Shown piece after piece: positions 255 through 63,397 of a stretch of 64,000 nucleotides of DNA. How positions within the stretch are numbered: position 1 is the first letter of the stretch; each line of letters opens with the position of its first letter. The notes under the pieces were generated by a model that was not told the DNA's origin, searched no databases, and worked only from the letters and a program-made list of their open reading frames with translations. A program made the translations under genes and the position numbers. The stretch is from an uncultured Bacteroidales bacterium (GTDB taxonomy: Bacteria > Bacteroidota > Bacteroidia > Bacteroidales > WCHB1-69), in assembly GCA_946413585.1 (NCBI GenBank), contig CAMKLG010000010.1, positions 437-64,436 of the forward strand, written 5' to 3'.

Positions 255-947
255 ATGTCAAAGACACTTAGAACTCCGTTGAAAGATAGATCGTTACCGA
301 ATTATTCCCGCAAAGAGGAAATCCTGAATTGCGCCAGTCATGCGGTTGGCGTGGTCTGCGCCCTCGTGATGATGTATATGATTGTGCGTGCATCGCTGCA
401 AAACCAAAGCTTGCTTGCACTGGTCAGCAGTGTCATCTACGTCCTCTCCGTTTTTGTTATGTTCCTGGTTTCCAGTATCTACCACGGACTTCCCAAAGGG
501 ATGCCCAAACAGGTGATGCGCGTGGTCGATCATTGCGACATCTTCTTCACCATCGCGGGCACCTACACGCCCATTATGCTTTTGGGCGTACTCAAAGTCA
601 ACCCTCCCATGGCGTGGTCGATTTTGGCCGTTGAATGGATTTTCGCCATCCTCGGCATTGTCCTAAATGCCATTGACATCAAAAAATACGCGAAATTCTC
701 CATGATTTGCTACTTGGCCATGGGCTGGTGCGTGATCATCAGTCTGCGCGACACCATCACCGCCATGACGTGGCCGGGCTTTGCCTGGATTCTGTATGGC
801 GGCGTGGCCTACACCATCGGTGCCATCCTCTACCTCATTGGCAAGAAAAAACCTTACCGGCATTTTGTTTTCCACCTTTTCGTACTCGCCGCCGCTGTTT
901 TGCAATTCGTTGGAGTGTTTGGGTACTTGTTGGCTGTTGGCTGTTAG
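255..947 (+). CDS. Hemolysin III / PAQR family 7-TM membrane protein
   Basis: 230 aa and multi-TM. Family-like motifs SSIYHG and HCDIFFTIAGTYTP. ATG start. The stop lies inside a heptamer array. Confidence 0.85.
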   Translation: MSKTLRTPLKDRSLPNYSRKEEILNCASHAVGVVCALVMMYMIVRASLQNQSLLALVSSVIYVLSVFVMFLVSSIYHGLPKGMPKQVMRVVDHCDIFFTIAGTYTPIMLLGVLKVNPPMAWSILAVEWIFAILGIVLNAIDIKKYAKFSMICYLAMGWCVIISLRDTITAMTWPGFAWILYGGVAYTIGAILYLIGKKKPYRHFVFHLFVLAAAVLQFVGVFGYLLAVGC

Positions 948-1105
948 CTGTTGGCTGTTGGTCGTGCACTGGCGAGAAAGGGATGCTTTGTTACTTAAGA
1001 CTTAGACTTAAACTTAGACTTAGACATAGACTTTTGACGTAGGACTCCCTATTGCCTATTGCCTATTGCCTTTTGCCTATTCCCTATTCCCTACTCCCTT
1101 TTCCC
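924..1105. repeat. Three abutting short-period tandem arrays at a convergent gene junction
   Basis: (TGGCTGT)x5-6 at 924-965; (CTTAGA/CTTAAA)x8 at 994-1044; (CCTATTG/CCTATTC/CCTACTC)x8 at 1048-1105. The arrays run into the 3' ends of both flanking genes. Confidence 0.9.
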
Positions 1106-3185
1106 TCGCGACTACGCACAACAGCAGCAGCACCAGGAACGTCAGCCATTCCAGCGTCCAGGCGGCTGAAACAAAGGGTTTGCGATAGGTGAAGACGACT
1201 TTTTGCGTGCCTTTGGGAACCTGTACGGACATCATGGAACTGTTGATGCGGTGGATTTCCAAGTCGCGTCCGTCGGCCTCACAATGCCAACCAGGATAGT
1301 AATTCTGCGTAAGGACGAGCGGCCGGGACTCTTTCACATTGGTTTTCAAGACAATACAACCAGGATCAAACTGCACAATGGTCGCTGACGAAGTCGAATC
1401 TTGATAAGTTCCTTTCCTTTCTTGCTGTTCTACGTATGCGGTGTCATCATTCAAAATGTGGGCAACCGTGTCGAAAACGATTGTCCTCGGAAAGAAGGCG
1501 ATAGGTAAATCCATGTTCAGCTCTTGACCGTTTTCAAAATAGGGTTGTTGCATTTTATCGAAATTACTGAGCATGAATGGATTATAACTCTCCCACTCTA
1601 CCTGTTTGAAGAACGATCCGGCGTTTTTCCACAACAGATGCGGGTCGGGATCCTGAATAGCGGAGGCGTTGCTCAGACGCTGCGGGACAGTTCGCGCCCG
1701 AGATTGTGTGATCCGCGCCAAATCCCGATGCCGTAATTCCTTATTATAAACAGTATATGGAGCAATCACTGCCACATGTAACATCATATCAATCAATAAA
1801 ATAACCAATAGCAGACAAGAGGCCTGACGGAATTTCAAGAATCGGAAAATGAGTATGGGAAGAAGGGCTATGGCCAAGGTCATCACCGCTTCCTTCCTCA
1901 ATTTGCGGAAGAAGGTATGCGGAAACAGGTCGCTTTCCCACCCTTTGCTAATGGGCAGATTAACCGCCACCAGTACAACGAGTGACACTGCGACGACCAT
2001 CAACATTGTTATAATCAATATTTTACGCGCTTTCTGATTTCCTTTCGAAATGGCATCAAATCCTACGGCGGCGAAAAGCAACATCGTGATAATGAAGAAA
2101 ATCCGCATCAACGTGGGGATGCGCATCAATTGTACCAACGGCAAGGTGTAGAACGCAAATCGGTGGAACGGCAACACCCGACCGTATGCAAACAGCAACG
2201 ACAAAACGCCCAACCCCAGCAGAAGCCATAGCATACGACTACGGTTTCGACACACCCCGACTACAAAGAACGCCAACGTAATGATGCCCACATAGATACT
2301 GCGCATGGTGACATCTGAAGACATAATACTGGGTTCTGTGGTAATGGTGTACGGGAACAGCAGGGAAGACAGCGATGGAAAATCGTTCGAAATCTGCGTA
2401 TAATCAAGTGATTGCCCACGTGTAATCCAGGGTTTGACCTCAACGAAGGAGATGATGGTGGGTAGGGCAAGTACGATAAAAAGCAGCACTGCCAATGCGC
2501 CAAAGAGACAAATATCGCGGAAATGACGGGAACGCTTATTCTTGACATCGTGAAACGCCATTGCCACAAACAGGGCGGCAACAATATAGACATATCCAAA
2601 ACTGAATCCGGGGTACCCACCCGTGAACATCAGCGAGGCGAAGATGGCGGTGCAAACGGCAGGTCGCCAACCTGGGGTGCGCAACAGTTGTAATGTGCTG
2701 TACATCAGCCACGGGAGCCAAGCGCCTGCCACTATCCACGACAGATGCTGTGCATTCCCCACGAAAAAGCCCGACATCAGATATGCGAACGCACCAACGA
2801 ATGCGGCAGGTCGTGACACATTGAAATGTAGGCACAGACAGTAAAGTCCCCAACCTCCAACAAAGACGTGCATCATAAACTCAATAGCGCACCAAATGGA
2901 GTGATATGGGCCAAAAATCGCAAAAATCCGTGCCGGGATATAAAACACACCCGTCTGAGGGTCTGCATGGGCAGGTGTCCCCATCATTTGGTAGGGATTC
3001 CACAACGGGGAAAGGTGATTCCTCAAGCAGTCAATGTGGAAATAACGTTGCGGGAAAAATTCGTTGTAAAAATCATGAATACATGGGTGTGCGAGAAAAC
3101 CGGCGTAAGCCAACACGGTAATCACGAGCAGCAACCCGACATACACCCCATCCATTTGCCATATCTTCCGAAACTTCTCCGACAT
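1077..3185 (-). CDS. Large polytopic membrane protein, YfhO-like (putative glycan/lipid-linked transferase family)
   Basis: 702 aa. More than 10 hydrophobic segments in the N-terminal two thirds, followed by a soluble C-terminal domain and a final TM. Assignment rests on overall architecture only. Confidence 0.5.
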   Translation of the reverse strand: MSEKFRKIWQMDGVYVGLLLVITVLAYAGFLAHPCIHDFYNEFFPQRYFHIDCLRNHLSPLWNPYQMMGTPAHADPQTGVFYIPARIFAIFGPYHSIWCAIEFMMHVFVGGWGLYCLCLHFNVSRPAAFVGAFAYLMSGFFVGNAQHLSWIVAGAWLPWLMYSTLQLLRTPGWRPAVCTAIFASLMFTGGYPGFSFGYVYIVAALFVAMAFHDVKNKRSRHFRDICLFGALAVLLFIVLALPTIISFVEVKPWITRGQSLDYTQISNDFPSLSSLLFPYTITTEPSIMSSDVTMRSIYVGIITLAFFVVGVCRNRSRMLWLLLGLGVLSLLFAYGRVLPFHRFAFYTLPLVQLMRIPTLMRIFFIITMLLFAAVGFDAISKGNQKARKILIITMLMVVAVSLVVLVAVNLPISKGWESDLFPHTFFRKLRKEAVMTLAIALLPILIFRFLKFRQASCLLLVILLIDMMLHVAVIAPYTVYNKELRHRDLARITQSRARTVPQRLSNASAIQDPDPHLLWKNAGSFFKQVEWESYNPFMLSNFDKMQQPYFENGQELNMDLPIAFFPRTIVFDTVAHILNDDTAYVEQQERKGTYQDSTSSATIVQFDPGCIVLKTNVKESRPLVLTQNYYPGWHCEADGRDLEIHRINSSMMSVQVPKGTQKVVFTYRKPFVSAAWTLEWLTFLVLLLLCVVAREKGVGNRE

Positions 3186-3211
3186 AATATATCACATTGA
3201 ATCATAGCAAT

Positions 3212-20026: not shown

Positions 20027-21154
20027 ATGGATCAGATAATCATTGGATATGATGCGAAACGTGCATTTTGCAACGGCACGGGGCTGGGAAACTACAGTCG
20101 CGGCGTGATTGCGGGAGCCGTCAAGAGCGGAGAAGTGGAAGCCCTGCTTTACACGCCTTACGCAAAATCGCGCTATGAGGATTTGGCAAAGAATCTGCCG
20201 CATACCCGTGTAAAAATGCCCCAAGGATGGTGGAAATGCGCACCATCCCTCTGGCGCACGCTGGCAAAGGCACAGGATGTCGAAAAGGACGGGGTGCAAG
20301 TTTATCATGGATTGAGCCAAGAGCTGCCACTGGGCTTACCCCAAAAAGTGGTCAAAATGGTGACCGTCCACGACCTGATAGCGTGGCGGTATCCTCAATA
20401 TTTCTCGCCGTTCGATCGAGCCATATACCGCAAGAAGATGAGACATGCGTGCCGCGTGGCAGATGTCGTCGTGGCCATCAGCGAGCAAACAAAGCAGGAT
20501 TTGGTAGAACTGATGGACGTTCCTGATGAGAAAATAAAGGTTGTCTATCAAACGTGCGACGAAATGTTTTGGAAAGTGGACAATACGAGCCTGAACATCG
20601 AAGCCGCACACAAAAAATACCATCTGCCAGACAAATATATAATATGTGTGGGGACGATAGAGGAACGCAAGAACCAACTATGCACCATACGCGCGTTGCA
20701 TCGATTGCCTGAAGAAATCGAGCTGGTTATTGTGGGAAGACCTCGAGGGGAATACGGACAAAGTGTGATGAAAGAAGCGAACGGACGGATACACATCGTG
20801 ACCAATGCGGACTTCGCCGATTTTCCCGCCTTATACGGAGGAGCCCTCGCGAGCGTGTATATTTCGCGGTTCGAAGGATTCGGAATCCCCGTGTTAGAGA
20901 GTATGTGCTGCGACACGCCGGTGGTGACCAGTGGTGTGTCGTCAATGCCCGAAGCCGGTGGCGACGCTGCCCTCTATGCGAATCCTGACGACGATGCTGC
21001 CGTAGCCGAGCACCTGCTACGGTTAGCAACGGATGAGGGATTCCAGGAAGAACGTATTGCAAAGGGACGAATCCAAAAGATGAGATTCTCCCCAGAAAGA
21101 GTGGCGCAAGACATGATTGAGGTGTATCGATCGTTCTTTGACGTTGACTATTGA
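20027..21154 (+). CDS. Glycosyltransferase family 4
   Basis: 375 aa. YISRFEGFGIPVLESMCCDTPVVTSGVSSMPEAGGDAALY (GT1-type EX7E region). Confidence 0.8.
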   Translation: MDQIIIGYDAKRAFCNGTGLGNYSRGVIAGAVKSGEVEALLYTPYAKSRYEDLAKNLPHTRVKMPQGWWKCAPSLWRTLAKAQDVEKDGVQVYHGLSQELPLGLPQKVVKMVTVHDLIAWRYPQYFSPFDRAIYRKKMRHACRVADVVVAISEQTKQDLVELMDVPDEKIKVVYQTCDEMFWKVDNTSLNIEAAHKKYHLPDKYIICVGTIEERKNQLCTIRALHRLPEEIELVIVGRPRGEYGQSVMKEANGRIHIVTNADFADFPALYGGALASVYISRFEGFGIPVLESMCCDTPVVTSGVSSMPEAGGDAALYANPDDDAAVAEHLLRLATDEGFQEERIAKGRIQKMRFSPERVAQDMIEVYRSFFDVDY

Positions 21155-21178
21155 CTTTGATTATTGACTTTGACGTAT
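21136..21178. repeat. Heptamer tandem array (TTGACTN) spanning a stop codon
   Basis: TTGACTA TTGACTT TGATTAT TGACTTT GACGTAT. The GT4 stop TGA (21152-21154) lies inside it. Confidence 0.8.
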
Positions 21179-22660: not shown

Positions 22661-22691
22661 TTATGTTTAAGGAAATTAACTTATTTCCATT

Positions 22692-22747
22692 CACTAATCA
22701 CTAATCACTAATCACTAATCACTGATCACTGATCACTAATCACCTAT
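22692..22747. repeat. Heptamer tandem array (CACTAAT/CACTGAT) x8
   Basis: Eight consecutive 7-nt units. The pfk stop codon (22744-22746, minus strand) lies in the last unit. Confidence 0.95.
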
Positions 22748-24814: not shown

Positions 24815-24849
24815 CAGCCAACAGCTAAAAGCTAAAAGCCAACAGCAAT
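24815..24849. repeat. Heptamer tandem array in the birA leader
   Basis: CAGCCAA CAGCTAA AAGCTAA AAGCCAA CAGCAAT. Confidence 0.85.
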
Positions 24850-24854
24850 TTACT

Positions 24855-25616
24855 ATGGACAATCGAAATGCAATATACGGGATCACGAAGCTGACGGACG
24901 TCACTTCTACCAACTCCCACCTCATGTCCTCTCTGCGGGAGCTTCGCAGCTGCGGGAAGGCAGTGCCCGACTTATGGGCTGTTTATGCGGACTTCCAGAC
25001 GGCGGGGCGCGGCGCGGGCACCAACACGTGGCACAGTACGCGCGGCGCCAACATCCTCACCAGCATCTGTTTCGACACGGGGTTAGCCGCCGCCGACCAG
25101 TTCGTCTTCAACCTCTGGTTCGCGACCTCCACGCGCCAGTTCCTCGCCAAGTACGTGCCCGAGGTCCTCATCAAGTGGCCCAACGACATGTACGTGCGCG
25201 ACCGCAAGCTCGCGGGCGACCTCACCGAGCACAGTCTCTCAGGCAGCCGCCTCGACTTCACCGTGGCGGGCATCGGCATCGATGTCAACGAGGCGGAATT
25301 CCCCGATTGGATCCCCAATCCCACCTCGCTGTTCCTCGAAACCGGCCAACATTACGATGTGGACGCGCTGTTGGACGAGTACCTCGCGGTGCTGCAAGAA
25401 CGCCGTCCGCTGCTGTCCACAGAACACGAGGCCGCCCTCCGCGAAGAGTATCTCTCGCATCTCTACCGCCGCGATGCGCCGCATTTGTATAATATTGGTG
25501 GACAACAGATTACCGGCATCATCCGCGACATCGACCGCTTCGGCCGTCTGGTACTAGAACTGCCGGACGGAAGCCAGGAGGCGTTCGGGTTCAAGGAGGT
25601 GGGGTACGTGATTTAA
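24855..25616 (+). CDS. birA: Biotin--[acetyl-CoA-carboxylase] ligase
   Basis: The ORF-track start is a TTG inside the promoter; the ATG at 24855 (MDNRNAIYG) is preferred. GRGAGTNTWHS matches the GRGRxGRxW biotin-ligase loop; KWPNDMY motif also present. Confidence 0.8.
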   Translation: MDNRNAIYGITKLTDVTSTNSHLMSSLRELRSCGKAVPDLWAVYADFQTAGRGAGTNTWHSTRGANILTSICFDTGLAAADQFVFNLWFATSTRQFLAKYVPEVLIKWPNDMYVRDRKLAGDLTEHSLSGSRLDFTVAGIGIDVNEAEFPDWIPNPTSLFLETGQHYDVDALLDEYLAVLQERRPLLSTEHEAALREEYLSHLYRRDAPHLYNIGGQQITGIIRDIDRFGRLVLELPDGSQEAFGFKEVGYVI

Positions 25617-25645
25617 TTAAGAATTAAGAATGATGAATGATGACA
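25612..25645. repeat. Heptamer tandem array (AATTAAG x2, AATGATG x2) at a convergent junction
   Basis: It begins at the birA stop TAA (25614-16). The 17-mer at 25616-25632 is the exact reverse complement of 55282-55298. Confidence 0.85.
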
Positions 25646-26951: not shown

Positions 26952-26985
26952 AAAAAAAGGCCGCGCCAAACCGGCAACGACCTTT
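26952..26985 (-). terminator. Rho-independent terminator of T9SS paralog A
   Basis: On the minus strand: AAAGGTCG - 14-nt loop - CGGCCTTT followed by TTTT. Duplicated at 31924-31957. Confidence 0.8.
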
Positions 26986-26988
26986 GTT

Positions 26989-27074
26989 AATGCATAATGT
27001 AGAATGAAGAATAATTATTCATCGTTTTCTTCATCGTCCTTTATTCTTCATTATGCATTCTTCATTCTTCATTG
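26989..27074. repeat. Conserved 3' element, copy A: long bulged hairpin plus (CATTCTT)n array containing the stop codon
   Basis: Arms AATGCATA..ATGAAGAATAA (26989-27014) and TTATTCTTCATTATGCATT (27041-27059), then CATTCTTCATTCTTCATTG. About 95% identical by eye to 31961-32060. Confidence 0.85.
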
Positions 27075-31957: not shown

Positions 31958-31960
31958 GTT

Positions 31961-32060
31961 AATGCATAATGCATAATGTAGAATGAAGAATGAAGAATAA
32001 TTATTCATCGTTTTCTTCATCGTCCTTTATTCTTCATTATGCATTCATCATTCATCACTT
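31961..32060. repeat. Conserved 3' element, copy B
   Basis: Same hairpin as copy A with two extra heptamers in the left arm (CATAATG, GAAGAAT). The array CATTCATCATTCATCAC contains the stop codon at 32055-57. Confidence 0.85.
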
Positions 32061-37274: not shown

Positions 37275-37324
37275 TTTTGTATGATTTTATGACTATTGAC
37301 TGCTTACTCTAACTACAGGCCTTT

Positions 37325-37359
37325 CCCTACCCCCTACTCCCTATTCACTACTCCCTACA
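37325..37359. repeat. Heptamer tandem array (CCCTACC/CCCTACT/CCCTATT...)
   Basis: Five 7-nt units. Contains the 11-mer CCCTACTCCCT, which is also found at 1089, 49992 and 62855. Confidence 0.85.
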
Positions 37360-40041: not shown

Positions 40042-40461
40042 ATGGCCAATCTTGACATTTTCACCCCGCATTCACACCACGACCAGATTCCCGTGGTGAA
40101 TGGCATCCATGCCGGATTCCCCTCCCCTGCCGAGGATTACGCGGAACCCGTCTTGGACCTCAACCGCTACGTCGTCAAAAACCAAGCCTCTACATTTTAC
40201 GCCCGCATCTCGGGCAACAGCATGGAAGGTGTCGGCATACAGGATGGCGACATTGTGGTCATCGACAAATCCCTGGAGCCTGCCAACGACCAGATTGCCG
40301 TCTGTTTCATCGACGGCGAGTTCACCCTCAAGCGCATCCACATGGAGAACGACCGTCTCTTCCTGATGCCGCACAATCCCTCCTTCCCGCCTATCGAAAT
40401 TACCGAAGAGAATAACTTCCAGGTGTGGGGGATTGTGACGTATGTGATTAAGAGGGTTTAG
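40042..40461 (+). CDS. umuD: Translesion polymerase V accessory subunit UmuD-like (S24 LexA-family peptidase)
   Basis: Start set at the ATG at 40042 (MANLDIF); the ORF-track ATG at 40018 lies inside the terminator stem. AGFPSPAEDY region, catalytic Ser in GNSME, Lys in TLKR. Confidence 0.8.
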   Translation: MANLDIFTPHSHHDQIPVVNGIHAGFPSPAEDYAEPVLDLNRYVVKNQASTFYARISGNSMEGVGIQDGDIVVIDKSLEPANDQIAVCFIDGEFTLKRIHMENDRLFLMPHNPSFPPIEITEENNFQVWGIVTYVIKRV

Positions 40462-40491
40462 GGGTTAGGGGTTAGGGGTTAGGGAATAGGG
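40454..40491 (+). repeat. Telomere-like G-tract array (GGGGTTA)n with G-quadruplex potential
   Basis: GGG TTTA GGGG TTA GGGG TTA GGGG TTA GGG AATA GGG. The umuD stop TAG (40459-61) lies inside the array. Confidence 0.9.
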
Positions 40492-41881: not shown

Positions 41882-41883
41882 AC

Positions 41884-42897: not shown

Positions 42898-42912
42898 GAC
42901 GCAATGCATTTC

Positions 42913-42950: not shown

Positions 42951-42977
42951 AACGACAACTGGGATAACTGGGACAAC
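42951..42977 (+). repeat. 27-nt direct repeat, left copy (9-mer array GACAACTGG-like)
   Basis: AACGACAACTGGGATAACTGGGACAAC matches 48865-48891 at 26 of 27 positions. Confidence 0.9.
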
Positions 42978-42994
42978 TATTATTTGAAAAAGTG

Positions 42995-43002: not shown

Positions 43003-43013
43003 CGTGCGGGAAA

Positions 43014-43058
43014 GAGGGTCGAGGGAATAGGCAATAGGGAATTGTAGGGTTTGTAGGG
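43014..43058. repeat. G-rich heptamer array (GAGGGAA/TAGGCAA/TAGGGAA/TTGTAGG)
   Basis: Six 7-nt units, the complement family of the CCCTATT/CCCTACT arrays. Confidence 0.75.
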
Positions 43059-43108: not shown

Positions 43109-43134
43109 GTAGTCATGGTCAAAATCAAAGTCAC

Positions 43135-48840: not shown

Positions 48841-48841
48841 T

Positions 48842-48881
48842 TTGTCCCTGTTGTCTTTAGTTTAAACGACAACTGGGACAA
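48842..48881. terminator. Hairpin at the convergent junction after the A2M gene (possible bidirectional terminator, no clear T-run)
   Basis: TTGTCCCTGTTGTC (48842-55) pairs with GACAACTGGGACAA (48868-81) at 13 of 14 positions, with a 12-nt loop. Confidence 0.4.
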
Positions 48882-48891
48882 CTGGGACAAC
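48865..48891 (+). repeat. 27-nt direct repeat, right copy
   Basis: AACGACAACTGGGACAACTGGGACAAC (see 42951-42977). Confidence 0.9.
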
Positions 48892-48931
48892 AAAAAATAA
48901 AGATTTTGCCAATTCTTTTCGGATGGTTTCA

Positions 48932-49864: not shown

Positions 49865-49980
49865 TTTTATGTAATTTCGGAATCCGACGGCAAAAACACA
49901 TAAAAAATCAATACCAGCTATAATAATTATTTTTTACACAAAGCTTGCTAAATTCACGTCTTATTATGTAAAAAATATGT

Positions 49981-49988
49981 ATTTTTGC
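49981..49988 (+). promoter_or_regulatory. -7 promoter box (TAnnTTTG) for umuC
   Basis: TATTTTTG lies 97 nt upstream of the ATG at 50085. Confidence 0.6.
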
Positions 49989-49991
49989 ATC

Positions 49992-50080
49992 CCTACTCCC
50001 TCTAAACTCTAAACTCTAAACTCTAAACCCTAAACCCTAAACTCTTAACTCTTAACTCTAAACCCTAAACCTTAAACCAC
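49992..50080. repeat. 13-unit heptamer array forming the umuC leader (CCCTACT, AACTCTA, AACCCTA, AACTCTT...)
   Basis: Period 7 throughout. No G on the + strand from 49989 to 50086. Contains plant-telomere-like CCCTAAA units. Confidence 0.95.
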
Positions 50081-50084
50081 CCCC

Positions 50085-51376: not shown

Positions 51377-53491
51377 TTATCCTGCATAGCTGTGCATACC
51401 GCCTAACAAGAAATTGACCCCAAAATAGGTAATCAGTACGCTTAGGAAAGCCAAAATGCCGTAAACATGGAAGAACATCGGTTTGCGGAACACAGTCCAA
51501 ACCGTTTTGTGCAACGGAACGATATAAATCAGCAGCGTAATCAGTGCCCACACCTCCTTGGGATCCCATGACCAGTAGTTACCCCACGAAATGTTGGCCC
51601 ACACCGCACCGATGAAGATGCCCGCCGTCAGCAAAGCGACTGCTGGGTAAAGCATGATGGTGCTGATATCTTGCAAGCGTTGCAGATAAGCGGTGTTTTC
51701 AGGCTGCGAAACGCGCACCACCACCGCGCTAATGCCATTCAACATAATGAAGAACAGCAGCGCGTAGGCAATCATAATCACCGTGACGTGCAAACTCAGC
51801 AGCGGTGACGAGAGTACCGGCATCAGATGGGTGACCGGCGGGTTAGAGCCGCCCATCATCTGCACCAACAACACCACACCCGTCATCAGCAGTCCAGCGG
51901 GCAATGCCATTTCGTACTTCCGACTCATTATCAAGGTGATAACACAAATACTTAACGCCAATAGGTTCATCGAATCGAAACTGCCGGCCATCGGCACGTG
52001 CCCGCCGACAATCCACCGGAGGATGAACAACAGAGACAAGAAGGCGCACAATAACGACATCCATATCACCATTGCCCCATGAACATTTCTCGGAAGTTTT
52101 CGTCCTTTTCCAATGCAGATTAATGCGATAGCGAAGCAAAGCAAGCCTAATGTAATGTTCACCATCGGGAGCCAACGACCCATCGTCAGACGATTGTAGA
52201 GTCGTTCGGAGCGGTATTTCGAGGCAGGCTGTGTAAGTCCGAGGGAGTATTTTTCCTGATAGATTTTGGTTTTCTCGAAGAGTTCGTTTAAGGCATCCAA
52301 TTTGCCCGTCACCACATATTCCTTGCACAAGCTCATCTGCTTACGAATGAAAAGGTACTCATCATCAGGAATTGTCAAGGGCAGCTGATCGTTTTGCGAG
52401 TACCATGTCACTTCACGCAAGCTGTCGGCGTGGGGAAACATCTTCAACAGTTGACCGTTTAGCAACATATTGATAATCTGTTGTTTCTCTTCAGCCGCTC
52501 GCTGTTTGTTCCGTTTCAAATCTTTTTCGAGCTTGGGAATCGGGGCGTTTTGCCAGTCATCTGTGTAGAAGAGCCAGCCGCTGAAAACCTGTTCCGGAGT
52601 GTAACCTTGGTATCGTGCTTTTCCGTACAGTTTGGTTGTGAAATCCTTGGCCAACGTCTGTAACGGACACACACGTCCCTTGTACATCACGTACATCTGT
52701 CCCATTTTGTCGGCACTCTCCCTTGGCAAGGTGCGGGGTTTATTAGCTGCCTGTGCAGGCAGGAACACGCTCATGGTCAGCAGGACAGCCAACACGGCCG
52801 CCTTGCTTGCCGTCTTTTGCAACAACTGACGAAATTCGCTCTTTCTGTCGAGAAACATCCCCACGATGGTGACGAAAAGCAGGAGATAACCCGCGTAGGT
52901 AACGCCCACCCCCCAGGGGTCATGAGCCACCGACAGTACAGAGTTGCCCTCCTCATCGTAATCGCTTTGGTAAAAGCGGTAATGGCGGTGTTTGAGAATA
53001 TGGTTCATGGAAATCGTGGCATCCAAAACACTCCCATTGTCCAATACTTGAAGATGGCTCACGAAGTCCATCGGCGAATGGGTGCCTGGGTAAGTTTCCA
53101 CCTCGAAACGACTGAGTGTCAAAGAGAACGGAAGATTTTCCGTGTGTTTATCTCCATGTTTTTCAACCGTGAATTGGTTGGTAGCCACACCCGGTTTCAG
53201 GGTCATTTCGCCGTGCTGTCCCGTGAGCATCGTCAGCAAAGCGCCGAGCAGAATGAGCAGCACGGAGCTGTGCAGGGCGCAGACGACCGGTCGTTGCCAG
53301 CTTTTGCGAGTGATCATCATGATCATCATTCCGATGGTAAGCAACGCCCACAGCGCCACAAACCACCAACTGCCATAGACATGGCTCAGTGCATAGTCAT
53401 TGCCGTGGAATTTCTCCACGATGGTGCCCGCTGCCATCGCCACAATCAGGGCGATGGTTAGGACGGAGAGGAGGTGTCGGAGGGTTTTCAT
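51377..53491 (-). CDS. ccsBA: System II cytochrome c synthetase, fused ResB/CcsB-CcsA (CcsBA)
   Basis: 704 aa polytopic protein. WWD heme-handling motif WGNYWSWDPKEVWAL in the C-terminal half and a ResB-like N-terminal half. Confidence 0.85.
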   Translation of the reverse strand: MKTLRHLLSVLTIALIVAMAAGTIVEKFHGNDYALSHVYGSWWFVALWALLTIGMMIMMITRKSWQRPVVCALHSSVLLILLGALLTMLTGQHGEMTLKPGVATNQFTVEKHGDKHTENLPFSLTLSRFEVETYPGTHSPMDFVSHLQVLDNGSVLDATISMNHILKHRHYRFYQSDYDEEGNSVLSVAHDPWGVGVTYAGYLLLFVTIVGMFLDRKSEFRQLLQKTASKAAVLAVLLTMSVFLPAQAANKPRTLPRESADKMGQMYVMYKGRVCPLQTLAKDFTTKLYGKARYQGYTPEQVFSGWLFYTDDWQNAPIPKLEKDLKRNKQRAAEEKQQIINMLLNGQLLKMFPHADSLREVTWYSQNDQLPLTIPDDEYLFIRKQMSLCKEYVVTGKLDALNELFEKTKIYQEKYSLGLTQPASKYRSERLYNRLTMGRWLPMVNITLGLLCFAIALICIGKGRKLPRNVHGAMVIWMSLLCAFLSLLFILRWIVGGHVPMAGSFDSMNLLALSICVITLIMSRKYEMALPAGLLMTGVVLLVQMMGGSNPPVTHLMPVLSSPLLSLHVTVIMIAYALLFFIMLNGISAVVVRVSQPENTAYLQRLQDISTIMLYPAVALLTAGIFIGAVWANISWGNYWSWDPKEVWALITLLIYIVPLHKTVWTVFRKPMFFHVYGILAFLSVLITYFGVNFLLGGMHSYAG

Positions 53492-53493: not shown

Positions 53494-53517
53494 GATTAAG
53501 AATTAAAAATTAAAAAA
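53494..53517. repeat. Short heptamer array (GATTAAG AATTAAA AATTAAA) in the ccsBA leader
   Basis: Lies between the -7 box (53523-30) and the ATG (53491). Same unit family as 25616 and 55281. Confidence 0.7.
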
Positions 53518-53546: not shown

Positions 53547-53714
53547 CCTTAAGCAGCCTCGAAGAGGCAAGACGCACGAAGTGCAATTAACCCCACACAA
53601 GCGAAGCGTAGTGTGGGGATCAAGCCGCACAAGCGAAGCGCAGTGTGGGGATCAAGCCACACAAGCGAAGCGCAGTATGGGGATCAAGCCACACAAGCAA
53701 AGCGCAGTGTGGGG
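53547..53714 (-). repeat. REP-like element, copy 2 (inverted), with its terminal hairpin amplified to four units of 32-bp period
   Basis: CCTTAAGCA-GCCTC GAA GAGGC-...TTAA, then hairpin units C(C/G)CACAAGC(G/A)AAGCG(T/C)AGT(G/A)TGGGG at 53593, 53625, 53657 and 53689, joined by ATCAAG. Confidence 0.9.
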
Positions 53715-53723: not shown

Positions 53724-55280
53724 CTAAATCGCGTTGATGAATTTTACGACGGCGTCGCGCTCTTCCTTGCTTAGGTTACGGAATTTCTCCACTGTCCAGC
53801 GGGCATCACTTTGGGAGCTGCCGTGCCACATAATGGCTTCCACGACGTTACGCGCGCGGCAGTCGTGCAAGCGGTCGCTGGAACCCGTACACAAGGCGGA
53901 AAGTCCGCGACCCCACAGCGGGGTAGTACGACACCAACCCGTACGGATATCGTTCACCATACAGAGACGATGCTGCACCATATCGGTGTAAGGCCATATT
54001 TTCTGGTTGGGATAGCGTGGCAAACGGCTGTCGGCCGTAGTGAAGAAACCGTTGGGGTCGGTGAAGCGATCCGGGCCGGTAGTCCAGCTGGGGCGGTGAC
54101 AACTTGCACAGCCGATCTCGCGGAAAATCTTGCGCCCTTTCTGAATTTCGGGATCATCCAAGTTACGGGCGGCGGGCACTGCCAAACCGCGATGCCAAAC
54201 CATCAAATTGACATAATCATCGTTGCTCATTTCAGCAGGTAAACTCTTGTTCATCAAGTAGTTGTAGATATCTGTTTCCGGATTGCCCGTGATATTGTAT
54301 TCAGGGAAATAGGCATAGAAATTGGCTTGAACCTCAGGGTCTTGCGAGGCCACGCGGGCGTAGGTTTCCGTCATGTAGTGATAGCGACGGTCGCCGCGCG
54401 TCACATTGGTGATGTTCCAGATGGCATTTGCGCCAGGACCGTCCTGTAGCGGGCCGCGGGAGCAGGCGTAGGTGAAACGCTTCGGATGGTTGGTTTTGCC
54501 GTACAACCCTGTGGGTGCCCAATCAGTACCAGCCCACATCGCCGGGTTCAGTTTCGCACCTGCATTGTATTCTCGCTGATACTGTACCTTCAACGAATCA
54601 TCCGGAATAGCATCCAGCAAACCCGTTCCATAGATACCGATAGTCGATTCCAGACGCACTTTTTCGGTTCCATAAGCGATAGTCGAACCGTTAGACTCCA
54701 ACGGAACGTAGTAAGCGGAGGCGGGGATATAGACTTCGGGGTAAATCAAGCTGTAAGACTCACCATCGGGGAAGCGGTTGCCCCACTCGTCCGTATAGTC
54801 TATCCACGTGATCTGAATTTGACTCTCGTCAATAGGTGCTTTGAAGGGCGGCACAGCCTTGGTCTGCGGCATACCGGTAAGGGACGAGATGTAGTTGTCG
54901 TTCTGATCGGTAACCACCAGAAGATAGCCGTTGCCCCAATCGCTCGCCGCATAACGATCCATACGTTTACCATGTCCATAGCCTGGATGACAAGCGATGC
55001 AGGAACTGCGGATATACAGAGGTCCTAATCCGTTGAACGGCGGTGTGTTCTGCGTAAAATCGCGCTCAAACAGATATTCACCGTACTTAAACGCCGCGAT
55101 GTCGTTAACCGCAGGCGCAGGATCCTCATACGCCGACGATGAACTGTTGAACGTCGTACCCAACTGACCACCCGCGTAGGTTTCCTCTTCAATCCAGGAA
55201 AGTTCTGTATTTTCAGGTTTATGGCAGCCTGCCAACAGGAATAATCCCAAAACAATAATGGTTGTCGTTATTTTATTCAT
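53724..55280 (-). CDS. Di-heme c-type cytochrome, DUF1111 / cytochrome-c-peroxidase-like oxidoreductase
   Basis: 518 aa lipoprotein-like protein (LLAGC). Two CxxCH motifs: CIACH and CASCH. Confidence 0.8.
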   Translation of the reverse strand: MNKITTTIIVLGLFLLAGCHKPENTELSWIEEETYAGGQLGTTFNSSSSAYEDPAPAVNDIAAFKYGEYLFERDFTQNTPPFNGLGPLYIRSSCIACHPGYGHGKRMDRYAASDWGNGYLLVVTDQNDNYISSLTGMPQTKAVPPFKAPIDESQIQITWIDYTDEWGNRFPDGESYSLIYPEVYIPASAYYVPLESNGSTIAYGTEKVRLESTIGIYGTGLLDAIPDDSLKVQYQREYNAGAKLNPAMWAGTDWAPTGLYGKTNHPKRFTYACSRGPLQDGPGANAIWNITNVTRGDRRYHYMTETYARVASQDPEVQANFYAYFPEYNITGNPETDIYNYLMNKSLPAEMSNDDYVNLMVWHRGLAVPAARNLDDPEIQKGRKIFREIGCASCHRPSWTTGPDRFTDPNGFFTTADSRLPRYPNQKIWPYTDMVQHRLCMVNDIRTGWCRTTPLWGRGLSALCTGSSDRLHDCRARNVVEAIMWHGSSQSDARWTVEKFRNLSKEERDAVVKFINAI

Positions 55281-55308
55281 AATTCTTAATTCTTAATTCA
55301 TAATTAAT
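55281..55308. repeat. Heptamer array (AATTCTT AATTCTT AATTCAT AATTAAT) filling a whole intergenic spacer
   Basis: It spans the 23-nt gap between the imelysin stop and the di-heme start. Confidence 0.9.
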
Positions 55309-56449: not shown

Positions 56450-56499
56450 CTTATTATTCTTTATGTTTGACTCTGTCTGGGATTATTTTTTTCATTCCA

Positions 56500-56561
56500 G
56501 GGGTTGCGCTTCGCTTACCCCTGTCTACCAAGCTCTTGCCCCTACGGGGCTGCTCAAGGAA
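56500..56561 (+). repeat. REP-like two-hairpin element, copy 3
   Basis: Hairpin 1 is GGGGT-TGCGCTTCGCTT-ACCCC: same loop as copies 1 and 2, different stem. Hairpin 2 is GCCCC-TAC-GGGGC (56538-50). Then TGCTCAAGGAA. Confidence 0.75.
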
Positions 56562-56572
56562 TATTTTTTAAT

Positions 56573-56612
56573 TCATCGTCCATTCATCGTATCATCGTGT
56601 CATCGTATTATC
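56573..56612. repeat. Short-period array (TCATCGT units, period 8-11)
   Basis: TCATCGT occurs at 56573, 56584, 56592 and 56600. The array abuts the stop codon of the porin-like gene (56608-10). Confidence 0.75.
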
Positions 56613-57951
56613 CTTTCTTATGAAATTCCTTGCTAAACATTCCCGCCCAGGTAATTCCCAGCGCGAACCACGGTTCTTGGTTGTACTGCGACTTGAGCAG
56701 GCGGATGCCGCCCTCGGCTTTGACGACGATCTCCTTGATGGGGCTGTAGTTGATGCCGCCGCTGACACACTGGCGGTCAGTCCATGCGTAATCTGTCATG
56801 TTGTGCCCCGGAATATAGGAGTCGTAATATTCGTAACGGGCGAAGAGATAGAGTTTGTGACGATCCATTTTGGGATTCTTGTGATGATGGAAAACATCGT
56901 AGCCGATTTCGCCGCCCGCACTCCAAGCCGCTTGACCCACAAGGGTTTGCGGGTACGGAGCCTGAGAGCTATGGGGCAATGTAGAGTTATAAACGGAGAT
57001 CAACTCACAGTCGGAGAGGTGGCCGTAGAGACCGCTACCGCGTATAACAAGACCGCCTGTTTTGTAACTGAAATCGAGACCACCGATGAGCGCAGTACCA
57101 CGCACCTTTGCGTAGCGAGAGGAACTTTCGTCAGTGATGATGTCGTTGCGGAAGGTATTGCCCACGAAACCGCTGATGCCTATGTGCAACCCTTTGATGC
57201 TGTAGTTATCGACGCGGGCGGCCACGGCCAACTTATTGGCAACGCGAAACTCGTAAGGCGAGGCAGAACCGTCGTGTGCCCAACCGGAAACGCTGAACAT
57301 GCTGGAGTTCAGCGACGGAATCAACATCACATCATAACGCCAGTCTTGAATGCGTCCCCAAACCTCAATACCGGTTTCGTGCCACGTACAAGGGATGATA
57401 GTATTCTCGCCTTCAGGACGATAGACTCCAAAAAACTGGGTAGGCAGATGGGCATTGTTCGTACCGCCAACGGGAACGACAATGTGACCTGCACGAATGT
57501 TCATCTTTCCACCCCAGAAGGCTTTCTGCAACCAAAACTGTTCCAAAGCGACCTCGCCGCCGCGCTCAATCTCCTTCTCGAACTCACCGGTCTCCTCAGC
57601 CTCCACTTCCACCGCCGACTCTGTGCCGCCATGCTCAAATTCTATCTCGGTATTGAAACTCCAACCATGTCCGAAATCATAACCTAACATAATGACGGCA
57701 TGGGGCAAATCAACACGCCCATGTCCCTTCGAGCCAGCGTAGTTTGCAGCGTGAGAATAACGGAAAACATTGTCACTGAAGAAATTGTATTTATAAACAG
57801 CCTCGCCATAACCACCAATGGTAAGCGTGCCTAACGACTTTCCTTTTGCCGTACTTTTAACCTTTGCGGTGTCTGCGCTGTTCTGTGCAATAACGGTCTG
57901 TAAACCAAAGAATAAAATGCCTAAAGAAGCGAATAAAATCTTTCTGCTCAT
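56608..57951 (-). CDS. Outer-membrane beta-barrel (porin-like) protein, first gene of the imelysin cluster
   Basis: Start set at the ATG at 57951 (MSRKILFASLGILFFGLQTVIAQ); the ORF-track start is a TTG inside the -7 box. Alternating aromatic/Gly beta-strand pattern. Confidence 0.5.
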   Translation of the reverse strand: MSRKILFASLGILFFGLQTVIAQNSADTAKVKSTAKGKSLGTLTIGGYGEAVYKYNFFSDNVFRYSHAANYAGSKGHGRVDLPHAVIMLGYDFGHGWSFNTEIEFEHGGTESAVEVEAEETGEFEKEIERGGEVALEQFWLQKAFWGGKMNIRAGHIVVPVGGTNNAHLPTQFFGVYRPEGENTIIPCTWHETGIEVWGRIQDWRYDVMLIPSLNSSMFSVSGWAHDGSASPYEFRVANKLAVAARVDNYSIKGLHIGISGFVGNTFRNDIITDESSSRYAKVRGTALIGGLDFSYKTGGLVIRGSGLYGHLSDCELISVYNSTLPHSSQAPYPQTLVGQAAWSAGGEIGYDVFHHHKNPKMDRHKLYLFARYEYYDSYIPGHNMTDYAWTDRQCVSGGINYSPIKEIVVKAEGGIRLLKSQYNQEPWFALGITWAGMFSKEFHKKG

Positions 57952-57969
57952 AAACTTGATTTTATGATG

Positions 57970-57977
57970 CAAAAGTA
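57970..57977 (-). promoter_or_regulatory. -7 promoter box (minus strand)
   Basis: CAAAAGTA on the + strand equals TACTTTTG on the minus strand, 19 nt upstream of the ATG at 57951. Confidence 0.55.
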
Positions 57978-61850: not shown

Positions 61851-61952
61851 TCTGAATCTTTGAATCTTTGAATCTTTGAATCTTTGAACTTTGAACTTTG
61901 AACCCTAAACCATAAACCCTAAACCATAAACCCTAAACCATAAACCCTAAAC
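61851..61952. repeat. Compound tandem array forming a whole 5' leader
   Basis: (ATCTTTGA)x3-4 with period 8, (ACTTTGA)x3 with period 7, then (CCCTAAA CCATAAA) alternating for 7 units. G-free from 61901 to 61957. Confidence 0.95.
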
Positions 61953-61955: not shown

Positions 61956-62807
61956 ATGAATCACCCTCCTCACCTCATGATTGATGCGGGCGGCACCAAG
62001 ACGGCCTTCGCATTGCTATACGACGGGAAGGTTTTCCGTTGCCAGAGCGGCGGCATCAACGCCAACTACACCCCTGAGGCGGACATCCTGCGCATCATGG
62101 CGGAAGCGGTACCGCAATTCCCGAAAGAGGTCATCATCAAAGGAATAGACTATTACGGGGCGGGATGTGCCACCCCGCAGAACGCCTTGCGCATGGAGAG
62201 TTACTTGCGGATGTTCTTCCCGATGGCCGAAATCCGGGTCTGGTCAGATCTGATGGCCGCCTGTCACGCGCTGGCAGGTGCGCGAGAGGCCATCGTCTGC
62301 ATCCTCGGCACCGGCGCGGCCTCCTGTCATTACGACGGACGGACGATGGTCGGGCGCGCACCCTCCCTCGGCTGGCTGCTCGGCGATGAAGGCAGCGGCA
62401 CCCACCTGGGCAAATGTCTGCTCTCCGCCTATCTCTCGGACGCACTCCCCCACCCGATTCGCGAAACCTTCGAAGAACGATACCGCCTCACCCGCGAACT
62501 CGTGATGCACAAGCTCTACCAGGAGCCGAAACCCAATCTGTTCATGTCGCAATTCGCCCCGTTCCTGAAAGAAAATATCGCGGAACCCGCTATACGACAA
62601 ATCGTTACGGAGGCTTTCACCGCCTTCTTCAAGAAGCAGAAGAGCTACTATCCAAGCTGCGATGGTCTCCCGTGGCATTTCACCGGCTCTGTCGCCGCGC
62701 ACTTCGAAAAAGCCTTGCGCGAGGCAGCGGAAACGGCAGGATGTAAAATCGGGGAGATTGCAGGAGACCCAATGGAAAAGTTAGTCCAATTAGAAATGGG
62801 TGATTAG
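61956..62807 (+). CDS. BadF/BadG/BcrA/BcrD-type ATPase (N-acetylglucosamine kinase-like)
   Basis: 283 aa. Phosphate-1 motif MIDAGGTKT, ILGTGAA, LLGDEGSG. Confidence 0.7.
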   Translation: MNHPPHLMIDAGGTKTAFALLYDGKVFRCQSGGINANYTPEADILRIMAEAVPQFPKEVIIKGIDYYGAGCATPQNALRMESYLRMFFPMAEIRVWSDLMAACHALAGAREAIVCILGTGAASCHYDGRTMVGRAPSLGWLLGDEGSGTHLGKCLLSAYLSDALPHPIRETFEERYRLTRELVMHKLYQEPKPNLFMSQFAPFLKENIAEPAIRQIVTEAFTAFFKKQKSYYPSCDGLPWHFTGSVAAHFEKALREAAETAGCKIGEIAGDPMEKLVQLEMGD

Positions 62808-62854
62808 ATATTCGTATTTTTAAGCTAGACGGCACCTGGTACGCTATCATTATT

Positions 62855-62868
62855 CCCTACTCCCTAAT
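62855..62868. repeat. Two-unit heptamer remnant (CCCTACT CCCTAAT)
   Basis: Contains the dispersed 11-mer CCCTACTCCCT. Confidence 0.6.
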
Positions 62869-62879: not shown

Positions 62880-62887
62880 TATCTTTG
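62880..62887 (+). promoter_or_regulatory. -7 promoter box (TAnnTTTG)
   Basis: TATCTTTG lies 42 nt upstream of the ATG at 62929. Confidence 0.55.
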
Positions 62888-62928
62888 CCCATCTAAAAAC
62901 AATTAATCGGCAAAAGACAGACAACGGT

Positions 62929-63342
62929 ATGGAACATACTATTATAGCGAAAGAAACGGAATTGTCCGACGTGGCGCAGAAGTTGCTGGAGGCGCACCCT
63001 CACGAGCGAGTATTCGGTTTTTACGGTGAAATGGGCACCGGCAAGACCACCCTCATCAAGGAAATCTGCCGTTTCCTCGGTGTGCAAAGCGACATGACCT
63101 CTCCCACTTTCGCCATCGTCAATGAATACTGGACAGAAAACGGCGAACCGCTCTATCACTTTGATTTCTACCGCATCGACGAGCCCGAAGATGCCACTCG
63201 CATCGGCTTCCAAGACTACCTATACAGCGGGAACTACTGCTTTATAGAATGGACCGAGAAAGTGGAATCTCTCCTCAACGGTGAATACACCCCCGTCCAC
63301 ATCGAACGCCTCGACGACCAAACCCGCGAATTCACGTTCTGA
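62929..63342 (+). CDS. tsaE: tRNA t6A37 threonylcarbamoyl-transfer complex ATPase TsaE (YjeE)
   Basis: 137 aa. FYGEMGTGKTTLIKEIC, SPTFAIVNEY, HFDFYRI. Confidence 0.85.
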   Translation: MEHTIIAKETELSDVAQKLLEAHPHERVFGFYGEMGTGKTTLIKEICRFLGVQSDMTSPTFAIVNEYWTENGEPLYHFDFYRIDEPEDATRIGFQDYLYSGNYCFIEWTEKVESLLNGEYTPVHIERLDDQTREFTF

Positions 63343-63397
63343 CTTTTGACTTTGAACTTTGACTTTGAACCTTGAACTTTGAACCTTGAACTTTAAG
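63339..63397. repeat. Heptamer array (TTGACTT/TGAACTT/GAACCTT) x8 between tsaE and the next gene
   Basis: It starts at the tsaE stop TGA (63340-42) and ends 5 nt before the ATG at 63402. It shares the 13-mer CTTTGAACTTTGA with 61882-61894. Confidence 0.95.

Follow-up and report, generated by a model that had tools for sequence, protein, structure and literature searches.

Simple sequence repeats (SSRs) with units of 5-11 nt are grouped as long SSRs (Mrázek, Guo & Shah 2007, as summarised in PMC4679880 and PMC4692102). In the same summaries, heptanucleotides are the most abundant long SSRs of repeat-rich prokaryotes, and slippage of a polymerase with 7-nt contacts is proposed as their cause (Mrázek 2007, via PMC4679880 and PMC4692102). 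Here we analyse a stretch of 64,000 nucleotides from an uncultured Bacteroidales bacterium of the lineage WCHB1-69 (assembly GCA_946413585.1, contig CAMKLG010000010.1, positions 437 to 64,436), referred to as the window, in which short tandem arrays, mostly of 7-nt units, lie between genes. An earlier note on this DNA had listed the arrays and considered them to be no described repeat class; intergenic SSRs dominated by heptanucleotides were in fact already known (PMC4679880, PMC4692102, PMC2670836). The arrays belong with the heptanucleotide-dominated long SSRs, the short tandemly repeated repetitive (STRR) sequences, the TAACTGA repeats and the heptamers of Xanthomonas and Nostoc. What is new here is a rule of strand polarity at gene ends, the occurrence of unstructured leaders free of ATG in a phylum that does not use Shine-Dalgarno pairing, and polymorphism by whole units within species. 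Polarity is the strongest signal, and it was absent from the earlier note.

The likeness to long SSRs, as far as these are summarised in the sources above, is close: head-to-tail 7-nt units occur far above chance, their distribution is sporadic and lineage-specific, an origin by slippage is proposed, and units that are not a multiple of three are kept out of coding DNA, periods 6 and 9 being found inside open reading frames (ORFs). The properties by which membership can be judged are an excess over shuffled sequence, dominance of period 7 outside coding DNA and copy changes by whole units, and the arrays have all three. They differ from the class, as it is summarised there, in their host, an uncultured clade of rumen Bacteroidales, and in the documented strand polarity at gene ends.

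The STRR heptamers of cyanobacteria are reportedly the subject of work by Mazel et al. in 1990, and the units CCCCAGT, TTGGTCA and CAACAGT are said to be typical of filamentous species; none of the three forms a tandem dimer in the 1.7 Mb that we examined. STRRs are 7-bp intergenic repeats of unknown function (PMC2670836). Like them, the present arrays are intergenic, lie between co-transcribed genes and in promoter regions, form hairpins in some copies and use a limited set of unit families at many unlinked loci; for STRRs, roles in transcript stability or translational coupling have been proposed. Unlike them, they occur in another phylum and comprise many more unit families.

The TAACTGA repeats lie directly upstream of start codons in a fixed orientation, and are found in marine Beggiatoaceae, some Cyanobacteria and five Bacteroidetes; in Flexibacter litoralis an array in reverse orientation lies just after a stop codon, and other heptamers accompany TAACTGA in intergenic regions of Bacteroidetes (PMC4679880). 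Our pre-start arrays share the preferred orientation, and tandems of TAACTGC and TAACTAC in six relatives of the window follow the same orientation rule. A TAACTGA tandem itself is absent from the 1.7 Mb examined, no unit is dominant, and the arrays are as common at 3′ ends of genes as at 5′ ends, in all of which they differ from the TAACTGA repeats.

A third group consists of the quadruplex-forming intergenic heptamers GGGAATC of Xanthomonas and GGGGA(C/T)T of Nostoc, which are found nearer to the 3′ end of the preceding ORF than to the ORF that follows (PMC4692102), a placement that the present arrays share. As with these repeats, length and sequence of our arrays vary among close relatives at conserved positions, and arrays of AGGGAAT, AGGGGTT, ATAGGGA and GGGTTAT resemble them and are capable of G-quadruplex formation on paper. 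However, tandems of GGGAATC and GGGGAYT are not found here, and the majority of units contain a single G at most. Only a minority of arrays have four or more runs of at least 3 G with short loops (40453-40491, 1046-1106 on the minus strand, 43022-43058 and the GGGTTAT arrays of relatives). The G-rich strand of the Xanthomonas repeat is about equally distributed over the two strands relative to ORFs (PMC4692102), in contrast to the strong polarity found here.

Finally, the SSRs of phase-variable loci in Haemophilus, Neisseria and Moraxella typically have units of 1-5 nt and lie in ORFs or between promoter elements (PMC2651432, PMC12721329), the AGAT repeats in the 5′ untranslated region (UTR) of uspA2 being an example outside these positions as far as they are cited in PMC4679880. 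Slippage-driven copy-number polymorphism in populations is common to both, as is the presence of some repeats in 5′ UTRs; in our case, however, the units are of 7 nt, lie outside ORFs and, where a promoter box could be located, outside the -33/-7 interval, and flank housekeeping genes. With 7 of 113 period-7 arrays in the interior of an ORF, a phase-variation locus with on/off switching was rejected as an identity. Detailed literature on heptanucleotide repeats has been noted to be scarce (PMC4692102), and a search for such repeats in Bacteroidales or rumen genomes returned no specific report within the library searched.

Arrays in the window were called with Tandem Repeats Finder (TRF), and rows of period 5-11 with at least 2.3 copies were counted; gene map, start codons and promoter boxes are simple predictions of our own. 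About 25 short-period arrays lie outside ORF interiors. All 19 loci listed earlier were recovered, with period 7 the commonest and periods 6, 8 and 9 present. The 27 spacers of at least 20 nt contain 22 TRF rows, compared with a mean of 0.34 and a maximum of 2 in mononucleotide shuffles, and arrays occupy 745 of the 5145 intergenic bases (14%). The arrays are thus at junctions, as had been claimed, but not at "almost every" one, since only 17 of the 27 carry an array. Neither an Rfam family at threshold, with the arrays included in the scan, nor any known RNA family or tRNA was found in the window. An identity as repetitive extragenic palindromic (REP) elements, miniature inverted-repeat transposable elements or CRISPR was rejected on this ground, and because the arrays are direct head-to-tail repeats without spacers.

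Counts of location and period were made for the window together with 80 related loci (1.37 Mb). Arrays of period 7 number 113, compared with 57 of period 6, 53 of period 8 and 31 of period 9. Those of period 7 cover 24.4 bp/kb of intergenic DNA but 0.49 bp/kb of coding DNA, with 7 in the interior of an ORF and the other 106 elsewhere; repeats of period 6 or 9 are mostly in frame and within ORFs. The confinement to non-coding DNA follows from the unit length, because 7 is not a multiple of 3. Within their own spacers the arrays are drawn to stop codons, with 81 abutting one where random placement would give 44, an excess of about twofold.

Read in the sense of the adjacent gene, post-stop arrays contain 7% C and 27% G; 62 have more G than C and 5 have more C than G. 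When the counts are collapsed by adjacent gene family, 43 families have the G excess and 7 the C excess (n=50, p = 2e-7). The sense strand of pre-start arrays has the opposite composition, with 8% G and 21% C, and after the same collapse 17 families have more C and 3 more G (n=20, p = 0.003). In the window alone, a hand count of post-stop arrays gave 10 with G excess, none with C excess and 2 ties. A single rule covers both ends: the G-rich strand of an array reads 5′ to 3′ away from the adjacent ORF. In co-directional spacers the skew grades from G excess by the stop to C excess by the start, and in convergent spacers the rule holds on both sides; the divergent-spacer conflicts that were inspected turned out to be arrays in the upstream region of the right-hand gene, or to obey the rule. 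A replication-strand cause was rejected, because the GC skew of the window has one sign in 27 of 32 two-kb bins and drifts steadily, whereas the arrays track gene orientation.

For the 5′ side of genes, promoters were located by the sequence TAnnTTTG, which we take from promoter work in Bacteroides and Flavobacterium to be the consensus of the Bacteroidetes -7 box. Many arrays begin a few bases past such a box and reach the start codon, making the predicted 5′ UTR nearly all array (49990-50080, 61853-61952 and, on the minus strand, 53495-53516). Leaders that contain arrays are long: their median box-to-ATG distance is 66 nt, compared with 30 nt for leaders that have none. Next to located boxes, an array lies either past the -7 box on its downstream side or ahead of the promoter A-tract, and a co-directional layout recurs in relatives, namely stop, array, hairpin terminator with T-run, -7 box, array and ATG.

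Leader arrays are nearly devoid of ATG in the sense strand. In a subset of pre-start arrays chosen to be proof against the choices of an ORF caller, with stops in all three frames and no adjacent upstream stop (41 arrays, 1764 bp), G makes up 4.6% and ATG occurs once in sense, compared with 73 times in antisense. Post-stop arrays, which are C-poor and stop-dense, have 167 ATGs in sense and 16 in antisense. A corresponding test for ATG depletion close to promoters had too few independent cases and suffered from false box matches such as TAGATTTG.

Predicted structure has a similar asymmetry. No structure is predicted for 82% of pre-start arrays in sense, compared with 39% if they are flipped, because A/G/U strands form G-U pairs and A/C/U strands cannot; post-stop arrays are slightly more foldable in sense than in antisense. 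The earlier suggestion of unstructured leaders is thereby borne out, and the two long leaders of the window fold to 0 (49990-50080) and -0.8 kcal/mol (61853-61952). Initiation in Bacteroidetes, which proceeds without Shine-Dalgarno pairing, depends on a region free of structure, and around their start codons AUG is under-represented (PMC6847099). In their predicted properties, the array leaders match these features.

Across species, orthologous junctions keep an array in the same position, whereas unit and copy number shift. For example, leader arrays are present at the site upstream of the ResB/CcsA-like gene in most relatives, with 3 to about 18 copies, and the unit in different species is TTCTTAA, TTCATCA (~18 copies), CTTGAAT, TCACTAA or CGTAAAT. 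Within species, slippage is active and the arrays change by whole units. The spacer between umuD and umuC was compared in 14 contigs that encode two near-identical UmuC variants (P0136, 10 contigs; P0131, 4 contigs); its alleles of 66, 80, 94, 101, 108 and 122 nt differ from one another by multiples of 7, and the contigs with identical P0136 alone account for five of these six lengths. These spacers have several internal patterns, and identical alleles recur in independent samples. In contigs with one of two TsaE protein variants (P0011, P0006), the array upstream of the tsaE promoter measures 15, 42, 49, 63 (three patterns) or 70 nt, with an identical flank of 60 nt beside it. Among 10 contigs of another species, tsaE-alaDh spacers of 60, 66, 72 or 73 nt are found, and the adjacent 149-nt non-array spacer has no indel in these contigs. 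The variation is credible because all of the arrays are shorter than a sequencing read. It was observed in sister species, since no contig of the window's own strain was found in the collections searched: exact-protein look-ups for the window's TsaE and UmuD gave no match, and the best relatives are ~88-96% identical. A role as slippage-prone contingency spacers had been suggested as one possibility. Proneness to slippage agrees with this variation; contingency spacers in the classical sense they are not, as the arrays lie outside ORFs and, wherever a box could be located, outside the interval from the -33 to the -7 element.

The repeats of unlinked loci have words in common. The 11-mer CCCTACTCCCT is present at 1089, 37332, 49991 (previously given as 49992) and 62855, the 13-mer CTTTGAACTTTGA at 61882 and 63350 with an additional copy at 61889, and CCCTAAA units at 50028-50063 and 61903-61945; CCCTAAA is also the telomere unit of plants, presumably by coincidence. 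A reverse-complement match between 25616 and 55282 exists as well, although it is an exact 16-mer with a one-base offset and not the 17-mer previously reported. Against a null in which the columns of each array are permuted, keeping composition and periodicity, 18 unlinked array pairs share an 11-mer where 0.8 are expected; four of the 18 involve the flanks of two paralogous genes for cargo of the type IX secretion system (T9SS). Families that recur at non-orthologous sites and across species are TCCCTAx / ATAGGGA, CTAAACC / GGTTTAG, TTTGAAC and TTAAGAA, and further TTAGTGA, GATGAAT, TGTTGGC / TGTTAGC and ACGATGAx. A compound TGTTGGC/TGTTAGC array, for instance, ends hlyIII in the window and an unrelated nadE-like gene in the relatives L002, L082, L089 and L090, and in compound arrays one family grades into another through single substitutions. 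Diversity is nevertheless high, with 75 distinct exact units in 130 incidences, on which ground a single conserved protein-binding heptamer was rejected.

Relatives were collected by a search with the imelysin gene, which gave 80 loci in GTDB species representatives, the best match having 92% amino-acid identity. Nearly all hosts are uncultured Bacteroidales represented by metagenome-assembled genomes (MAGs) from the rumen or hindgut of yak, goat, sheep, cattle, reindeer and horse; more distant matches are to Candidatus Colimorpha (Bacteroidales incertae sedis) and Candidatus Coprenecus (Rikenellaceae). Arrays of the same kind are found at ~130 loci of related rumen Bacteroidales, in MAG and metagenome assemblies made independently. 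We rejected an artefact of assembly or synthesis, because such arrays occur in JGI, ENA and Logan data as well as in MAGs that several projects placed in GenBank, with identical alleles across independent samples. In the window, 13% of the intergenic DNA consists of arrays of period 7 or 8; the share is 16% for relatives at 80-92% amino-acid identity, 5% at 62-75% and ~2% beyond, and dense arrays are a clade-specific feature. A share of ~14-16% looks high. As a separate observation, several public short-read contigs (L109, L110, L113, L118 and L119) start or stop inside heptamer arrays, and array heterogeneity may contribute to the fragmentation of MAGs in this clade.

The reading we favour, and consider probable, is that the arrays are generated by slippage and that their orientation is filtered by the RNA-level constraints of Bacteroidota that lack Shine-Dalgarno pairing. 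The arrays are heptanucleotide-dominated SSRs that arise and change by strand slippage in whole units, that persist only outside reading frames, and that have become extremely dense in one uncultured clade of rumen Bacteroidales. The choice of which strand appears in the mRNA is non-random and would be subject to the filter. From the -7 box or an upstream stop to the start codon, arrays that are A/C/U-rich and G-poor in sense, with almost no AUG, GUG or UUG, would be retained; such a strand forms neither G-C nor G-U pairs and should suit the structure-free, AUG-poor initiation of Shine-Dalgarno-independent ribosomes. From the stop codon onwards, arrays are A/G/U-rich and C-poor in sense, dense in stops in all frames, and able to form hairpins that are weak within one array and strong in inverted pairs. 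Selection on translation and RNA folding is the inferred cause of the polarity, and expression may be tuned through copy number.

Several observations weigh against this reading. Most genes have short leaders and no array; initiation therefore does not need arrays, which may simply be tolerated. C-rich arrays are in some cases found upstream of promoters, outside the expected reach of selection at the level of translation, and short intercistronic arrays hold ATGs in sense. Arrays do not differ in structure from their own shuffles, and the lack of structure is therefore compositional. In the window, one array clearly breaks the polarity, namely the G-rich leader at 43022-43058. The cause of C-depletion after stop codons is not established, and stops themselves are only weakly enriched beyond composition. 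The sharing of unit families between unlinked loci is not accounted for by slippage from local seeds. Moreover, the related loci are homologous neighbourhoods, and counts are partly non-independent even after collapse by gene family.

The strongest rival is a neutral one, in which the arrays are junk microsatellites tolerated outside frames, and the polarity derives from seeding, by duplication of a 7-mer that contains the stop, or from a mutational asymmetry. That most genes do without arrays fits this account, as do the fast turnover of units and copy numbers, the compositional nature of both stop content and lack of structure, and the frequent inclusion in an array of the gene's own stop, which is C-free by definition. 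Yet it accounts poorly for the strength and the direction of the skew. The 30 nt of non-array DNA after stops are without bias (C 0.196, G 0.19), and units seeded there by a stop would have only a mild G excess, whereas 43 families against 7 are observed, with C at 7%. Opposite polarity at the two ends of a gene rules out any single mutational bias linked to transcription or replication, and neither the pre-start ATG counts (one against 73) nor the retention of arrays at the same junction across species at 70-90% amino-acid identity is expected of junk. We therefore regard the neutral account as unlikely, although it is the most serious of the rivals.

A second possibility is that the arrays are binding platforms for a factor that recognises single-stranded RNA, through an oligonucleotide-binding (OB) fold that covers ~7 nt or through a dimer of pyrimidine and cytosine (YC), the candidates being Rho, S1 and the cold-shock proteins; we think this improbable. 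Rho loads on C-rich, G-poor, unstructured RNA. With the C-rich strand reading into the gene, antisense or read-through transcripts would be terminated, and leaders would serve as Rho-sensitive attenuators dependent on copy number, a version that we hold to be just as doubtful. The attraction of such a platform is that one polarity rule would cover both gene ends: RNA that reads into genes has 21-27% C and 7-8% G and is unstructured, copy number is polymorphic in natural populations, and C-rich arrays in front of promoters suit an insulator better than a translational role. In addition, binding of S1, Csp or CsrA has been proposed for TAACTGA, and one CspB molecule per heptamer is cited (PMC4679880). 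Extended further, the arrays could form a gene-boundary layer, peculiar to this rumen Bacteroidales clade, that is coded by orientation and tunable by copy number, the C-rich strand being a loading pad for Rho or OB-fold proteins that provides insulation from antisense and read-through transcription and heritable leader rheostats; we give this little credence. It would follow that the shared vocabulary reflects a common mechanism of recognition or spread and not local slippage alone, a consequence that appears similarly improbable. Against a platform stand the diversity of units, which is hard to reconcile with a binder of one specific sequence, and the absence of a YC dimer from some units, CTGCTAA among them; moreover, Rho-sensitive leaders would cut the expression of housekeeping genes for no obvious reason.

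The third and weakest rival is the proposal of the earlier note that the arrays are selected chiefly as frame-independent translational insulators on both strands. It is arithmetically true that three 7-nt units place any stop triplet in all three frames, and at each of the 11 genes named (hlyIII, the yfhO-like gene, GT4, pfp, birA, the two T9SS cargo paralogs, umuD, imelysin, 56608-57972 and tsaE; the names agree with Pfam) the stop lies inside or abuts an array. ORFs do end in arrays (hlyIII, umuD and the nadE-like gene of relatives), 81% of post-stop units (52/64) have a sense-strand stop, and 40 of 70 post-stop arrays contain stops in each of the three frames in sense, compared with 23 of 70 in antisense. 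The stop content is mostly compositional, because 72% of letter-permuted units also contain one (52 observed vs 45.9 expected of 64, p about 0.02), and the gene's own stop inflates the count. As a main signal, stop-codon enrichment was accordingly rejected, being only marginal beyond composition. Since stop codons contain no C, C-depletion maximises stop density, and the density is largely a by-product of that depletion. The proposal is very unlikely, given this small gain, the stop-free units TGGTTAT and GGGTTAT that are common after stops, the leader and pre-promoter arrays that need another explanation, and the lack of any sign of unusual read-through in the lineage.

The individual arrays of the window illustrate both gene ends. 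At the 3′ end of hlyIII (255-947), (TGTTGGC)4.9 (928..961, plus strand) contains the stop TAG inside the variant unit TGTTAGC and has the post-stop polarity, with more G than C in sense. It is followed by (ACTTAG)6.7 (993..1033) in the middle of the convergent spacer towards the yfhO-like gene (1077-3185, minus strand), the stop of which is overlapped by (TCCCTAT/TGCCTAT)8.7 (1046..1106, minus); here the sense unit is ATAGGGA, C-poor, and the array holds CCCTACTCCCT at 1089. The GT4 glycosyltransferase gene (20027-21154) has its stop within a CTTTGA / TTGACTTTGACTA array (21136..21174, plus). On the minus strand, (TCACTAA)7.6 (22691..22743) abuts the stop of pfp (22744-23976), with a sense unit TTAGTGA that contains TAG and TGA and is C-poor except in two variant TCAGTGA units; weak self-pairing is predicted (-19 kcal/mol). 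The gene birA has arrays at both ends: a short (AGCTAAA)2.4 array (24823..24839, plus) in its 5′ leader downstream of the -7 box TAGTATTTTTG, and (AATTAAG)(GAATGAT) arrays (25615..25643, plus) that begin in its stop codon and have no C in sense. Further post-stop arrays are (AGGGGTT)4.6 (40453..40491, plus), which includes the umuD stop, is C-free in sense and can form a G-quadruplex on paper, and the period-8 array (TACGATGA)3.6 (56584..56612, minus) at the stop of gene 56608-57972. Between imelysin and the DHOR-like gene, a TTAAGAA/TTATGAA array (55275..55305, minus) makes up the whole 23-nt spacer (55281-55303) from stop to start and has post-stop polarity. The convergent spacer after the tsaE stop is filled by (TTTGAAC/TGACTTT)7.4 (63340..63394, plus), and by ~13 units in the relative L002.

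Inverted pairs of arrays are predicted to form strong hairpins at three places (26945-27072 and 31945-32058 on the minus strand, 48838-48900 on the plus strand; z-scores -5 to -6). The first is behind the T9SS cargo gene 27069-31760, where a post-stop (AATGAAG)n array and its inverted copy (26985..27073, minus) would form a long 3′ hairpin upstream of an intrinsic terminator (-37.4 kcal/mol, z = -5.0). The second has the same architecture, with (GATGAAT/AATGAAG)n arrays and an inverted copy (31960..32057, minus) behind the paralogous T9SS cargo gene 32055-37274 (-32.3 kcal/mol, z = -5.3). The two paralogs (fn3 + Por_Secre_tail) share duplicated 3′ flanks, 26799-27068 and 31761-32054, which consist of inverted heptamer arrays and the intrinsic terminator AAAGGTCGTTGCC...GGCGCGGCCTTTTTTT. 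The third lies 3′ of the alpha-2-macroglobulin gene (43069-48840), where (GACAACTGG)2.7 and an inverted partial copy (48844..48891, plus) fold to -23.4 kcal/mol (z = -5.9). The same period-9 unit is present on the other flank of this gene as (GACAACTGG)2.8 (42954..42978, plus), between a terminator and the gene's promoter, so that both flanks (42954-42978, 48868-48891) carry it in identical orientation. The leader of this gene is the (AGGGAAT)n array 43022..43058 (plus).

Among the other leaders, the array of the umuC-like gene, (TCCCTAC)(CTCTAAA)(CTAAACC) (49990..50080, plus), makes up almost the entire 5′ leader, starting immediately past the -7 box TGTATTTTTGC and ending 4 nt short of the ATG, and is free of G and of ATG. 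The 100-nt leader of gene 61956-62807 is an array of (TGAATCTT)(TTTGAAC)(AACCCTA/AACCATA) (61853..61952, plus) that spans the distance from the -7 box TAGTATCTTTG to the ATG. On the minus strand, (TTTTTAA/TTCTTAA)3 (53495..53516) is the leader of the ResB/CcsA-like gene (51377-53491), downstream of a minus-strand -7 box. In a divergent spacer, (TCCCTAC)5 (37324..37358, plus) has its C-rich strand directed toward the OmpA/TPR gene at 37481, and which of the two flanking genes owns it is ambiguous. A two-unit TCCCTAC remnant (62853..62868, plus) lies just upstream of the tsaE promoter A-tract, at a site where relatives have a (CTTAAAC/CCTAAAC)n array of 2 to 10 units. Three arrays, (TTAGGGG)n at 40453-40491, (ATAGGGA)n at 1046-1106 (minus) and (AGGGAAT)n at 43022-43058, have at least four runs of 3-4 G with short loops, and on paper could form quadruplexes on the non-template strand or in RNA.

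The umuDC region is arranged differently in the window and in its relatives. In the relatives L122-L135, umuD and umuC are adjacent and separated by an all-array spacer of 66-122 nt; in the window, a 9.6-kb block lies between them (40462-50084), with genes 40763-42579, a small ORF, the alpha-2-macroglobulin gene and the region 48841-49716, and umuC has its own -7 box. To judge from this gene order, the array spacer looks like a site of rearrangement or insertion, and the arrays by umuD and umuC in the window appear to be the two halves of a spacer that is undivided in relatives. The (TTAGGGG)n array 3′ of umuD (40450-40495) and the (CCCTAAA/CTCTAAA)n leader of umuC (49984-50084) are predicted to form an RNA duplex of -52 kcal/mol. 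Trans-pairing of a 3′-UTR array with a 5′-leader array is unsupported, because the two halves of the umuD-umuC spacer in relatives are not complementary by eye; the complementarity is probably a by-product of opposite polarity within one unit family.

Repeats of other kinds are found beside the arrays. A 32-nt unit, CCACACAAGCGAAGCGCAGTGTGGGGATCAAG, is repeated 3.8 times at 53593-53714 (minus-strand sense), each unit being a hairpin (CCACAC...GTGTGG), and related copies are present at 22576-22680 and 56470-56570. It belongs to a composite REP-like element that comprises TTCCTTGAGCAG, a CCCCGnAGGGG hairpin, CAAGACGCACG... and a CCCCACAC...GTGTGGGG hairpin; the element lies directly after post-stop arrays in constant orientation to transcription, at junctions that differ among relatives, and has no Rfam match. 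Another palindrome of REP-like type, GTAGAGACG-loop-CGTCTCTAC, which in many cases precedes a T-run, resembles a terminator hairpin and is sometimes present twice per spacer. It is very common in relatives (at the DHOR-ResB junction of L003-L035 and around umuDC in L122-L135), with a loop that varies between strains, and has a single copy in the window, at 46973. Two regions mapped as intergenic may contain genes: 42680-42910 includes an ORF of ~75 aa that begins ATGAAAAAAGTATTAGTG and is lipoprotein-like, followed by a terminator, and is likely a small gene, and 48930-49716 has overlapping minus-strand ORFs (48932-49351 and 49288-49716), possibly one disrupted gene.

Heptanucleotides are the commonest long microsatellite in repeat-rich bacterial genomes, and their function is unknown. 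The clade described here offers dense material for their study, as arrays make up ~14% of its intergenic DNA and public assemblies number in the hundreds. Should the polarity be functional, array copy number could tune the expression of ordinary genes in abundant bacteria of the rumen.

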